Of a DNA stretch of 33,242 nucleotides, positions 1 through 32,225 are shown piece after piece. The number at the start of each line of letters is the position of its first letter. Position 1 is the first letter of the stretch. The position numbers were made by a program, and so were the translations under genes. The stretch is from a virus (taxonomy: Duplodnaviria; Heunggongvirae; Uroviricota; Caudoviricetes). The stretch is taken from positions 1 to 33,242 of IMG/VR virus record IMGVR_UViG_2703718832_000007; one strand, given 5' to 3'. A model generated the notes under the pieces. The model saw only the letters and a program-made list of their open reading frames with translations. It was not told the origin of the DNA and did not search any database.

Positions 1-1158
1 ATGCTCACCGTTAAGCAGATTGAAGCAGCAAAGCCGAAAGAAAAACCATACCGCCTTCTCGATGGTAATGGCCTGTACCTTTATGTCCCTGTGTCAGGGA
101 AAAAGGTATGGCAGCTTCGCTACAAGATTGACGGTAAGGAAAAAATACTGACCGTCGGAAAATATCCGCTTATGACTTTGCAGGAGGCAAGAGATAAAGC
201 ATGGACCGCGAGGAAAGACATCTCGGTTGGCATCGATCCGGTAAAGGCGAAAAAGGCTTCGTCTAACAACAATTCCTTTAGTGCGATTTACAAGGAATGG
301 TACGAGCACAAGAAGCAAGTCTGGTCAGTAGGCTATGCAACTGAACTTGCCAAAATGTTTGATGACGACATTTTACCCATCATCGGCGGCCTTGAGATTC
401 AGGATATTGAGCCGATGCAACTGCTGGAAGTAATCCGCAGATTTGAAGATCGCGGCGCAATGGAGCGAGCCAACAAAGCACGCAGAAGATGCGGCGAGGT
501 TTTCCGTTACGCTATTGTCACTGGTAGGGCTAAATATAACCCGGCACCTGACCTTGCTGACGCCATGAAGGGATACCGCAAGAAGAACTTCCCGTTTCTT
601 CCTGCAGACCAGATCCCGGCATTCAACAAAGCACTGGCAACATTTTCAGGAAGTATCGTATCGCTCATTGCGACCAAAGTTTTACGCTACACAGCCCTAA
701 GAACGAAAGAGCTTCGTTCCATGCAATGGAAGAACGTCGATTTTGAAAACAGGATTATCACCATCGACGCCAGTGTGATGAAGGGACGCAAAATTCATGT
801 GGTCCCGATGTCGGACCAGGTGGTTGAACTTCTCACTACGCTAAGCTCAATCACCAAACCAGTATCAGAGTTTGTTTTTGCCGGGCGCAATGATAAGAAA
901 AAGCCAATCTGCGAGAACGCGGTATTGCTTGTGATCAAACAAATCGGCTATGAAGGTCTGGAAAGCGGTCACGGATTCAGGCATGAATTCAGCACGATTA
1001 TGAACGAGCACGAATGGCCTGCTGATGCTATTGAAGTGCAACTGGCACATGCCAACGGCGGATCTGTGCGCGGGATTTACAACCATGCTCAGTATCTCGA
1101 TAAGCGCAGAGAAATGATGCAGTGGTGGGCGGACTGGATTGATGAAAAGGTGGAGTGA
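1..1158 (+). CDS. int: Tyrosine recombinase / phage integrase, P4-type (N-terminal DUF4102-like arm-binding region plus C-terminal catalytic domain)
   Basis: 385-aa ORF with ATG start; N-terminus MLTVKQIEAAKPKEKPYRLLDGNGLYL is the typical P4-family integrase opening; C-terminal HGFRHEF...YLDKRREMMQWWADW resembles the catalytic region of tyrosine recombinases. Confidence 0.9.
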   Translation: MLTVKQIEAAKPKEKPYRLLDGNGLYLYVPVSGKKVWQLRYKIDGKEKILTVGKYPLMTLQEARDKAWTARKDISVGIDPVKAKKASSNNNSFSAIYKEWYEHKKQVWSVGYATELAKMFDDDILPIIGGLEIQDIEPMQLLEVIRRFEDRGAMERANKARRRCGEVFRYAIVTGRAKYNPAPDLADAMKGYRKKNFPFLPADQIPAFNKALATFSGSIVSLIATKVLRYTALRTKELRSMQWKNVDFENRIITIDASVMKGRKIHVVPMSDQVVELLTTLSSITKPVSEFVFAGRNDKKKPICENAVLLVIKQIGYEGLESGHGFRHEFSTIMNEHEWPADAIEVQLAHANGGSVRGIYNHAQYLDKRREMMQWWADWIDEKVE

Positions 1159-1231: not shown

Positions 1232-1621
1232 TCACATCACCGGGCAATCATCAAACTCACCAGAACGCGCATCGTTGATGATGTACGTGATCACACCGAA
1301 CAGATGCGACTCATCATCAAACAGGCTGGTAGGCTTTGTTATCTCCTCTGCCGCTCCAGTCTCCAGATTGATCAGATGTGGTTTAGGGTGGCGCTTGTAC
1401 CGCTTCACCCTGAACTCATTGTCAACTGAACAAACAAGTAACGAGCCATCAAACGGTGTCAGTGAACTGTCAACGACGAGCAAAGCGCCGTACATGATGC
1501 CTTCTCGCCAGTAAGTTTGCCCTGCCCGCATGAAGTACGTTGCCGATGGTTTGCTAATTAGCGTCTCGTCGAGCGATATGCGTTGCTCAACGTAGTCTGC
1601 TGCTGGCGATGGGAATCCCAT
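1232..1621 (-). CDS. UmuD'-like protein (LexA/S24 peptidase fold), lacking the N-terminal pro-segment, catalytic Ser position occupied by Thr
   Basis: 129-aa ORF; MGFPSPAADYVEQRISL...PSATYF aligns with E. coli UmuD from the Cys24-Gly25 cleavage site onward (UmuD CGFPSPAADYVEQRIDL...PSATYF); UmuD GDSM corresponds to GQTY here; Lys of the dyad is retained (EFRVKRY vs EFTVKKL); GAGGTG RBS 5 nt upstream of ATG. Confidence 0.7.
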   Translation of the reverse strand: MGFPSPAADYVEQRISLDETLISKPSATYFMRAGQTYWREGIMYGALLVVDSSLTPFDGSLLVCSVDNEFRVKRYKRHPKPHLINLETGAAEEITKPTSLFDDESHLFGVITYIINDARSGEFDDCPVM

Positions 1622-1638
1622 GATGCACCTCAGACAGT

Positions 1639-1658
1639 TGCTGTGTATACATACAGTA
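1639..1658. promoter_or_regulatory. LexA (SOS) box upstream of the UmuD'-like gene
   Basis: TGCTGTGTATACATACAGTA fits the CTGT-N8-ACAG LexA consensus (TACTGTATATATATACAGTA) at about 17 of 20 positions and lies 18 bp upstream of the minus-strand ATG at 1621. Confidence 0.7.
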
Positions 1659-1862
1659 TTATTGATCGGTGCAGCTGATCAACATGCAAGCGGAAATAAA
1701 TTACGCATTTCTTCTGGTACGCGCTGCTTCTAGCTTGTATGCGACTGATTGCATTTGGTAAACATGCCAATAGCAAATCACATAAGCTGGTTTGCTTTGG
1801 TGACATATCAGCGCTCAGGTGCTAGATTTCCCTCAACATTTACTCATTATCCTGAATTCATT

Positions 1863-2873
1863 ATGGATGTTTCAAAAAAACCGCAACGCGTTTACTGGGT
1901 TGACTCGCTACGTTTCATAGCTATTTTCCTTGTCTACATTGGTCATCTTGGACCAAGTGCAGGCAGGATATACAGCTTTGTTTACCTGTTTCATGTACCG
2001 CTTTTCTTTTTTATATCCGGGATGTTCTACAAATCTGGAGGCGGCATCGCGGATAATGTGAAGTCATCATTTAAAAAATTGATGATTCCTTATTTTGTGT
2101 ACTCACTTGCATCACTTATCGTCTACACGCTTTTCCTTCAGAAAGACATAGTGAGCGTGCAGCAGTACGTAATTCAGTTACTGGAAGCAAAGAGAAACTT
2201 TACTGAGTATGCAGTCCAAATGTGGTTTTTGCCGTGCATGTTCCTGATAATGATTTTTTTCCACGCCATGAAATCACTCATAAAAAGTGACATCATTGTA
2301 TTTGCTTTATGTATTGTAATGATGTCTTTGAGTGTTTATGTTCCTGACGTTCCGTCTTCAGTCGTGCCAAAGTTGCCATACTCTTTAGATAGCGCTTTCT
2401 TTTATATATCGTGGTATGCCATAGGGTATTATTGCAGAGGATGGTTTATATCTTTCTTTAGCCGTGCTGGATCTGTTCAGGTTGTTATGCACGTGCTTGC
2501 AATGGCTTTTGCTGTCATGTGCTTCTTCGGCCTGCATCACGACCCTGAGAACTATATAACATTGATAGTCGGCGGTAAGACTTACGTAATACTGTGGATG
2601 ATTCCTACTTTCCTGCTTTTCATTTCATTGATACCAATAGCAAAAATTTTAAGCGAGTATCAGCCGGTTCTTTACATGGGTAGAAACACCCTGCTGCTGT
2701 GCTGTATTGAAAGCATAGCTAAGATATCATTCATATCATTAATAGGTATTAGTGGGCATAGCCTTAACATTGGGGATGAGTATTACTCCTTCGTGTACAT
2801 ATCGGTCCTCATGTTGCTTATTTATGTGGCTAAAACAAAGCTTGATGAGTGGAAAAACAAAACCCCGGTTTGA
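1863..2873 (+). CDS. oac: O-antigen acetyltransferase, acyltransferase-3 family integral membrane protein (serotype-conversion, Oac-like)
   Basis: Multi-pass hydrophobic protein; N-terminal YWVDSLRFIAIFLVYIGH matches the acyltransferase-3 signature; AT-rich gene. The ORF track starts at a TTG at 1749; the ATG at 1863 (MDVSKKPQRVYWVD, 336 aa) is the more plausible start and is close to the length I recall for Sf6 Oac. Confidence 0.8.
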   Translation: MDVSKKPQRVYWVDSLRFIAIFLVYIGHLGPSAGRIYSFVYLFHVPLFFFISGMFYKSGGGIADNVKSSFKKLMIPYFVYSLASLIVYTLFLQKDIVSVQQYVIQLLEAKRNFTEYAVQMWFLPCMFLIMIFFHAMKSLIKSDIIVFALCIVMMSLSVYVPDVPSSVVPKLPYSLDSAFFYISWYAIGYYCRGWFISFFSRAGSVQVVMHVLAMAFAVMCFFGLHHDPENYITLIVGGKTYVILWMIPTFLLFISLIPIAKILSEYQPVLYMGRNTLLLCCIESIAKISFISLIGISGHSLNIGDEYYSFVYISVLMLLIYVAKTKLDEWKNKTPV

Positions 2874-31454: not shown

Positions 31455-31565
31455 ATGCCCTCCATAGTAACCATGAAACAATAATACGATATGTACTTTT
31501 AGAATGCAAACAAAAAATACATCTTGTGCATGGATGGTTTTAGTACAGAGCGTAATAATAAGGGT
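31455..31565. promoter_or_regulatory. OR region: pR (TTGCAT, 17 nt, TATTAT on the minus strand) with at least two operator dyads
   Basis: Operator-like sites at 31480-31497 (reverse complement AGTACATATCGTATTATT, overlapping the pR -10) and 31542-31559 (AGTACAGAGCGTAATAAT, just upstream of the cI start); divergent cro/cI arrangement. Confidence 0.6.
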
Positions 31566-32225
31566 ATGAAAATGAAATGGTATGAACTGGCTAGATCCAG
31601 AATGAAAGAGCTCGGCATAACTCAAGAGAAGTTAGCTGAAGAGCTTGGTATGACGCAGGGTGGAATTGGTCACTGGTTGCGCGGATCTCGTCATCCATCT
31701 CTTGACGAGATTGGTGTGGTGTTTAAATACCTTGGTATTGATAACGTCTCATTCAACCACGACGGTACATTTTCACCTGTTGGCGAATACTCATCTGCCC
31801 CCGTTAAAAAACAATATGAGTACCCTGTTTTTTCTCATGTTCAGGCCGGGATGTTCTCGCCTGAGCTTAGAACCTTTACCAAAGGTGATGCGGAGAAATG
31901 GGTCAGCACAACCAAAAAAGCCAGTGATTGTGCGTTTTGGCTTGAAGTTGAAGGTAATTCCATGACCGCACCAACAGGATCCAAGCCAAGCTTTCCTGAC
32001 GGGATGTTAATTCTCGTTGACCCTGAGCAGGCTGTTGAGCCAGGTGATTTCTGCATAGCCAGACTTGGTGGTGACGAGTTTACCTTCAAGAAACTGATCA
32101 GGGATAGCGGTCAGGTGTTCCTACAGCCACTAAACCCGCAATATCCAATGATTCCATGCAATGATAGCTGTTCCGTAGTAGGGAAAGTTATCGCCAGCCA
32201 GTGGCCTGAAGAGACATTTAGTTAA
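31566..32225 (+). CDS. cI: CI-type prophage repressor (N-terminal HTH, C-terminal LexA/S24-like autocleavage domain), P22 c2-like
   Basis: C-terminal region [32 protein letters not shown]...[28 protein letters not shown] aligns with P22 C2 (FWLDVQGDSMTAPAG...[28 protein letters not shown]), including the Ser/Lys dyad context. The start is uncertain: ATG at 31566 or 31572; the track ORF begins at 31524. Confidence 0.85.

Follow-up and report, generated by a model that had tools for sequence, protein, structure and literature searches.

MucA, ImpA, RumA and SamA are UmuD-like proteins of full length, each with a UmuC homologue as partner, and they depend on cleavage mediated by RecA. The HumD protein of phage P1 is defined by the paper of McLenigan et al. 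1999 (J Bacteriol 181:7005), in which it is reportedly of UmuD' size and encoded without a umuC partner; it is said to form dimers, to bind UmuC and RecA filaments, and to restore mutagenesis well only from a high-copy plasmid, being reportedly poorly expressed. With such a need for high copy number and such poor expression, translesion synthesis is perhaps not the natural role of P1 HumD. The P1 RefSeq record describes humD with the words "DNA repair; functionally complements E. coli UmuD'". In the literature humD is treated as a LexA-regulated SOS gene (PMC9603915), PMC7092418 supports the HumD reading beside it, and the context on UmuD homologues of plasmids and ICEs is given in PMC11541004.

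The DNA analysed here, called the window below, is the whole 33,242-nucleotide stretch of the IMG/VR record IMGVR_UViG_2703718832_000007 (Caudoviricetes) and corresponds to a P22-like (Lederbergvirus-like) prophage; it opens with the ATG of an IntS-type integrase gene (1-1158, plus strand), which has 95–98% nucleotide identity to int of Sf6, HK620 and CUS-3. On the minus strand, convergent with int, lies the humD coding sequence (1232-1621), a pre-truncated UmuD' analogue of the HumD family with 129 codons plus the stop, and divergent from it follows a family-3 acyltransferase gene (1863-2873, plus strand; Pfam Acyl_transf_3, E = 4.6e-21), a candidate for O-antigen modification. The only full-length phage match of this acyltransferase is the SfII acyltransferase, with 29% identity, and its other phage matches are short (38–40% of the query) and belong to Bacillus and Listeria phages. 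The preliminary description placed humD between the integrase and oac; integrase and acyltransferase do flank it, but the latter is not Sf6 Oac, which gave no match, the best phage match being that to SfII. The rest of the window encodes the tailspike, antirepressor, ejection proteins, coat, portal, terminase and lysis genes, together with a DnaB-like helicase, an O-like replication protein and a cI-like repressor (31524-32225) in which Pfam finds an intact S24 domain. The same arrangement occurs in E. coli SRY149, where tRNA-Arg, intS (+), HumD (-), acyltransferase (+) and tailspike (-) follow one another and where RefSeq already uses the name HumD.

Between the convergent int and humD genes there is a hairpin with a 12-nt stem (1183-1216; 92% complementary) which is a candidate bidirectional terminator; a consensus scan for intrinsic terminators called none, this hairpin included. 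In the HK620 record a terminator is annotated just beyond int. Neither a tRNA gene nor a tRNA fragment was found in the window by ARAGORN, and the attP core of IntS-type phages, according to the HK620 annotation, is located upstream of int, hence beyond the start of the window.

The humD frame runs from the ATG at 1621-1619 to the stop at 1234-1232. At the start codon (1619-1621, minus strand), Met1 stands in place of Cys24 of UmuD and Gly2 corresponds to Gly25: in phmmer searches against PDB sequences, residue 2 falls on the first residue of UmuD' (1umu_A, E = 6.6e-23) and, in full-length UmuD (8gmt_B), on residue 25. The reference sequence of E. coli UmuD was checked against the K-12 record. 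Since Gly2 aligns with Gly25, the protein starts exactly at the Cys24/Gly25 cleavage site, as had been proposed, and the alignment to UmuD on which that proposal depends is significant. Alignment and upstream translation show that the N-terminal pro-segment with its Cys/Ala-Gly cleavage site is absent from the window HumD. The MGFPSP N-terminus is shared by 120 of 121 HumD-family sequences (the window sequence and its 120 nearest cluster representatives, the sample of all counts out of 121). A Shine-Dalgarno motif, GAGG, read directly from the sequence, lies at 1628-1631 (minus strand), 6 nt before the ATG, and the reverse complement of 1622-1631 is GAGGTGCATC.

The S24 fold of the product would also be expected of an ordinary full-length UmuD or of a LexA/CI-like repressor whose true start lies upstream. 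Such a reading is excluded by the sequence, because an in-frame stop occurs 20 codons upstream of the ATG with no ATG, GTG or TTG in frame between them, so that the upstream start which the preliminary description asked to be looked for does not exist; in addition, the LexA box described below lies inside that stretch. A DNA-binding domain with a cleavable linker of LexA/CI type is absent, with no residues ahead of the S24 domain, and the profile scores remain under the cut-offs of both the NCBIfam UmuD model NF007621/PRK10276 (90.3 against 110 bits) and the LexA model TIGR00498 (31.7 against 110.95 bits).

The profile that does recognise the protein is NCBIfam NF051876, "HumD family translesion DNA polymerase", an equivalog model with a curated cut-off of 120 bits, which scores 220 bits with residues 1–129 on profile positions 1–129. 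Pfam Peptidase_S24 (PF00717) is matched with 36.6 bits against a gathering score of 23.3, and PHROGs labels the product a "UmuD-like protein". The window gene is thus almost certainly a member of the HumD family. A role in a defence system was set aside, as a PADLOC search gave no match. With regard to structure, an AlphaFold2 model built with 88 diverse sequences reached a pLDDT of 73.5 (77–86 in the core), while a model built on a shallower set, 50 close homologues, had a mean pLDDT of 42.5 and was not used. The top PDB matches of the former in Foldseek are UmuD' (1umu, 1ay9) and RecA-filament-bound UmuD (8gmt); as modelled, the window HumD folds like UmuD'.

Relatives are numerous. Searches with tblastn recovered 62 near-full-length relatives in phage records, including HumD of P1 and P7 (63.6% identity, over 129/129 residues in the case of P1), N15 gp26 (66.7%), HK639 (65.9%), HK140 (66.4%) and phiKO2 gp23 (63.6%), as well as P1-like phage-plasmids and P22-like phages such as BTP1. 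The protein database contains 743 homologue clusters at 90% identity, mostly of 128–129 aa, from Citrobacter, Enterobacter, Escherichia, Salmonella, Kluyvera and related genera, many of which already carry the name "HumD family translesion DNA polymerase". The nearest proteins, 96–97% identical, are from Citrobacter, and an allele with 97% identity occurs at the same argW locus in prophages of lambdoid siphovirus type and in P22-like prophages carrying gtr. An exact 40-mer from humD was not found in GTDB representative genomes, and no allele above 86% nucleotide identity was present among E. coli complete genomes. The gene is of a known kind and typical of the HumD family, whose first description, from phage P1, dates from 1999; the window adds another P22-like, argW-integrating prophage to its carriers.

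Broken copies of humD occur in BTP1, where the frame stops after 28 codons, and in APC_JM3.2, where it stops after 98; 3' remnants are common in genomes, and the peptidase motif is degenerate, all of which could point to a decaying remnant or to a chance open reading frame without function. For the window gene this is very improbable, since its frame is intact and of full length, its Shine-Dalgarno motif and LexA box are conserved, and the homologue clusters just described mostly keep the same length. In particular, humD is under purifying selection, with Ka/Ks of 0.04–0.06 against the 97%-identical alleles, at a Ks of about 0.33, and of 0.16–0.28 against distant homologues.

In UmuD the self-cleavage depends on a Ser-Lys dyad whose serine lies in the GDSM motif. 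In the window HumD this motif is replaced by GQTY, with a one-residue deletion immediately ahead of it, and the G-[DE]-S-M signature with its Ser-Lys dyad is absent: alignments put Thr36 (codon ACT, 1514-1516, minus strand) at the catalytic Ser60, while Lys73 (codon AAG, 1403-1405, minus strand) is retained at the dyad Lys97. Both observations confirm what had been read from the sequence at first, yet the threonine is no peculiarity of this gene, being the majority residue of the family: the Ser60 position is occupied by Thr in 83 of the 121 sequences, by Ser in 35 (the ADSH of P1 included) and by Ala in 3, and the dyad Lys is present in 119 of them. Within the N-terminal half, no part varies more than positions 34–38, the former GDSM, with an entropy of 1.0–3.1 bits.

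Farther away the dyad changes at both positions, which carry Tyr and Arg in the protein of Hafnia phage yong1 and Ala and Arg in that of Aeromonas phage pAEv1818. An alignment of 88 sequences, which are not phylogenetically independent, contains the GxS[ML] signature in 1 of the 36 pre-truncated proteins against 46 of the 52 with an N-terminal segment; in the same non-independent set, Lys at the dyad position is found in 17/36 and 48/52, respectively. Such decay of the dyad in truncated proteins fits a lineage with no further need of self-cleavage.

Upstream of the gene, a LexA (SOS) box, TACTGTATGTATACACAGCA on the gene strand, is located at 1639-1658. It agrees with the consensus at 17 of 20 positions, is unique in the 33 kb and was not reproduced in any of 100 shuffles, whereas the bare CTGT-N8-ACAG core, which appeared in 36 of 100 shuffles, is not significant alone over this length. 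The box claimed at the outset is thus present; its distance from the humD ATG is 17 nt and not 18. Boxes that score 15/20 or better, keep the CTGT as well as the ACAG core and lie no more than 100 nt upstream are present in 26 of 39 related humD loci, compared with 2 among 2000 control windows; the gap is 14–19 nt in 23 of the 39 loci, with 17 nt as the modal value (15 loci). In loci without a nearby box, as in HK140, the box stands before an upstream co-oriented gene. The distance between box and ATG is 14 nt in N15, 17 nt in HK639, 44 nt in phiKO2 and 262 nt in HK140, in this last case before the upstream gene; since in E. coli 19 nt separate the umuDC box from the ATG, the regulatory geometry of humD is that of umuD. 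In the P1 RefSeq record, the annotation "LexA binding site in the regulatory region of lxr and humD" stands 19 nt ahead of the gene, and the phiKO2 record places a lexA site between a dinI-like and a umuD-like gene. A consensus scan called no sigma-70 promoter on the humD strand near the box. Control of humD by LexA in vivo would be in keeping with this sequence arrangement.

The gene is also an orphan, as the preliminary description had stated. With E. coli UmuC as query, tblastn gave no match either in the window or in 64 related loci totalling 373 kb, and no Y-family polymerase was recognised among the ten large open reading frames of the window scanned with Pfam (those of 336 to 722 aa and the 233-aa cI-like repressor, so that every frame of about UmuC size, 417–472 aa, was covered), which belong to phage structural, replication or immunity families or have no match. 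These searches refer to a window that stops before the early-left region, about 6 kb of the prophage lying outside it.

Taken together, these features make it probable that HumD acts as an SOS-induced UmuD' substitute which engages host UmuC and RecA*. The gene is carried as an accessory gene beside the integrase of an argW-integrating, P22-like prophage. On such a scheme, in the undamaged lysogen, host LexA bound to the box 17 nt before the ATG would keep it off, and upon DNA damage the activation of RecA and the self-cleavage of LexA would allow its transcription. The product begins with Met-Gly-Phe-Pro and, the removal of Met being expected because Gly follows it, would acquire an N-terminus equal to that of RecA-processed UmuD'. 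With a UmuD'-like N-terminus from the start, RecA-mediated self-cleavage would not be needed, and the peptidase signature has decayed from GDSM to GQTY. By analogy with P1 HumD, the protein is expected to form dimers and to associate with host UmuC and with RecA filaments, so that a polymerase V-like translesion activity could arise earlier or more strongly than the delayed conversion of host UmuD to UmuD' allows. UmuD is controlled by Lon and ClpXP through its N-terminal segment, and HumD may also bypass this proteolytic control of the host. The 36% difference between the window HumD and P1 HumD counts against the scheme, as do the reportedly poor expression of P1 HumD, the lack of a called sigma-70 promoter beside the box and the conserved C-terminal tail described below.

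In the main rival reading, HumD would not be a polymerase subunit but would modulate the RecA filament and host UmuD or act as a decoy for them: it would bind in the RecA* groove that also receives LexA, UmuD and the prophage repressor, or form heterodimers with host UmuD/UmuD', and so tune the SOS response, recombination or prophage induction, a role that is compatible with that of a UmuD' substitute. The fold of HumD is that of S24 domains which dock on RecA filaments, as in the UmuD-RecA (8gmt) and LexA-RecA (8gms) structures; the repressor of the same prophage, with its intact S24 domain, must use RecA*; and humD is an orphan throughout, in the window and the 64 loci, titration having been raised at the first reading of the sequence as well. 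Nevertheless, the curated name of the family and the sole experimental work point to a UmuD'-like function, and a pure decoy has no need for the exact UmuD' N-terminus that is kept in 120/121 sequences, which leaves the decoy or modulator unlikely as an alternative to the UmuD' substitute.

A feature that UmuD' lacks is the C-terminal tail specific to HumD, NDARSGEFDDCPVM (1235-1276, minus strand), which is absent from E. coli UmuD and is modelled with a pLDDT of about 48. The window protein has the family-specific ending ...ARSGEFDDCPVM, and its tip, EFDDCPVM, is acidic, predicted to be disordered and near-invariant in the HumD family. The common 3' remnants, and the annotation in HK140 of attP over the gene end, raised the idea that the tail is conserved as DNA, that is as an att or recombination site; this was rejected, because the synonymous codon diversity of the tail (0.475) is close to that of the remaining gene (0.59–0.63), which argues that the constraint is on the peptide. 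The tail is kept in relatives with 45–53% identity from a Hafnia phage, an Aeromonas phage, Siccibacter and Phytobacter, the divergent relatives ending in ...SEFDDNPCM and ...CEWDDLPVI, and it is found in 20 of the 36 pre-truncated but in none of the 52 representatives with an N-terminal segment, counts that are not phylogenetically independent. A conserved tail that is lacking in UmuD' suggests an added or different interaction.

One such interaction could be read from the C-terminal tip of E. coli SSB, MDFDDDIPF (PMC10018359). The acidic tip of HumD, E-F-D-D-x-P-x-hydrophobic-COOH, would on this reading mimic that of SSB and dock HumD, with any bound UmuC, on the pockets of SSB partners, or compete with SSB, and it is the tip and not truncation alone that would be the specific function of the family. 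The idea draws on the absence of the tail from UmuD, its near-normal synonymous variation, its predicted disorder, the uneven distribution between pre-truncated and longer proteins just given, and its retention in the 45–53% identical relatives that have neither dyad residue; moreover, some lineages end in ...GEFDDTPF or ...FEFHDNLPF, and among about 1930 unrelated open frames of the loci at hand, 1 has an end that is loosely similar. Against it, the likeness was noticed post hoc and is about six residues long, the last residue is Met and not the Phe recognised by SSB partners, the Pro stands one position away from its place in SSB, the counts lack phylogenetic independence, and no description of such a resemblance was found in the literature. 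SSB mimicry by the tip is consequently a doubtful proposal, and it seems rather improbable that the HumD lineage is in this way more than a "pre-cut UmuD'", having lost the peptidase signature and gained an SSB-like disordered tip; were it so, the acidic-aromatic tip, with forms such as E-F-D-D-x-P-x-M/I-COOH, could hold HumD and its UmuC at the places of SSB partners on stalled forks or displace SSB from these partners, and would represent a phage-specific steering of translesion synthesis or repair.

For the UmuD' substitute, the preferred reading, the initial picture of a damage-induced, pre-truncated, non-self-cleaving mimic which lacks its own UmuC and acts on host UmuC, UmuD or RecA agrees with HumD annotation and publications; in fact, since the P1 and phiKO2 records and the HumD literature say likewise, that interpretation is essentially the published description of HumD. 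Its implied novelty was overstated, because the family is curated (NF051876) and widespread, with 743 clusters, because Thr is the commonest residue there and because the neighbouring gene is not Sf6 oac; the synteny, too, was already annotated in RefSeq. The HumD family matters because through it a prophage can supply an already activated cofactor of polymerase V under SOS control. Such a supply could raise the damage tolerance and the mutation rates of lysogens, with a bearing on antibiotic-induced mutagenesis, and work on the role of HumD could be guided by the patterns seen across the family, namely the majority of Thr, the decay of the dyad in distant truncated relatives, the modal 17-nt spacing of the LexA box and the near-invariant, disordered acidic C-terminal tip.

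Among known systems, P1 HumD resembles the window protein in its 129 aa, in the MGFPSP start at the UmuD cleavage site, in the lack of a umuC partner, in the LexA box 17–19 nt upstream and in the tail SGEFDDCPV[MI], the two being 64% identical. They differ in the nucleophile position, with Ser (ADSH) in P1 and Thr (GQTY) here, and in their surroundings, since P1 humD lies beside phd-doc on a plasmid prophage whereas the window gene stands between intS and the acyltransferase gene of an integrated P22-like prophage. N15 gp26, phiKO2 gp23, HK639 gp28 and HK140_028 are UmuD-like proteins of the same family and length from lambdoid or linear-plasmid prophages, which share Thr at the Ser position and have a LexA box each; their genes adjoin tail-fibre and int or sop genes, and they differ from the window HumD in being 62–67% identical to it and in having a dinI-like gene and sopAB as neighbours. 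E. coli UmuD/UmuD' (PDB 1UMU, 1AY9, 1I4V, 8GMT) has the same fold, 43% identity over the UmuD' part, the same N-terminus as UmuD' and a LexA box at a near-equal distance from the ATG. In comparison with UmuD, the window HumD is without the 24-residue pro-segment, and therefore without the Cys24-Gly25 site and the N-terminal Lon/ClpXP determinants; it has GQTY for GDSM, about 10 extra residues in the tail and no umuC operon. MucA, ImpA, RumA and SamA are likewise products of mobile-element UmuD-like genes under SOS control, but they are full length, cleaved with the help of RecA and paired with UmuC, whereas HumD of the window is pre-truncated and an orphan.

The distance between the LexA box and the ATG is 19 nt in E. 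coli K-12 umuDC (locus L065, 1188-1270) versus 17 nt in humD (window, 1619-1658), and these near-equal spacings fit a umuD gene as the ancestor of humD, with codons 2-24 lost in frame and the regulatory region left in place. A full-length umuD can also occur as an orphan: the gene of Erwinia sp. MMLR14_017 (L049, 2929-3348) encodes a protein of 139 aa with an intact GNSM/Lys site and is followed on its 3' side by tetR-family and MFS genes and not by umuC.

The 3' end of humD alone, corresponding to the last 15–90 codons, is present in many enterobacterial genomes (L053, L055, L056, L058-L064, L045, L047, L048 and L052), and these fragments often start near ...INDAR. Comparable fragments are found in some Stx-phage records, in Sf101 and in mEp234, close to the integrase or to the end of the record, and in the annotation of HK140 a putative attP overlaps the 3' end of the humD-family gene. 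The occurrence of 3'-only fragments, together with the HK140 overlap, suggests that this end of the gene is a recurrent recombination or mosaic boundary. Disrupted copies of humD are found in Salmonella phage BTP1 (L004, 1501-1873), with a stop after 28 codons, and in E. coli phage APC_JM3.2 (L013, 1501-1797), with 98 codons. BTP1 retains a LexA box matching 18 of 20 consensus positions despite the broken gene, in place of which its record annotates an opposite-strand hypothetical gene.

In the window, int and humD converge on a hairpin with a 12-nt stem (1183-1216), which is likely a terminator shared by the two genes; a consensus terminator scan of the window did not call it. A 58-codon ORF (1630-1806, minus strand) overlaps the intergenic sequence upstream of humD, LexA box included; it is without support and probably spurious. 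The neighbouring gene (1863-2873, plus strand), named oac in the preliminary description, encodes a family-3 acyltransferase without detectable match to Sf6 Oac, and among phage proteins it matches only the SfII acyltransferase over the full length, with 29% identity. This gene is probably not under LexA control, since about 140 bp separate the LexA box from a promoter-like site (1800-1828).

HumD proteins have in common a C-terminal tail which UmuD lacks; it is encoded in the window at 1235-1276 (minus strand), where it ends in EFDDCPVM-COOH, and is also present at loci L014, L015, L042 and L043. The tail is conserved at the protein level and predicted by modelling to be disordered, and some relatives end in ...DDTPF or ...NLPF. 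In sequence, the HumD tail resembles the C-terminal tip of SSB, MDFDDDIPF.
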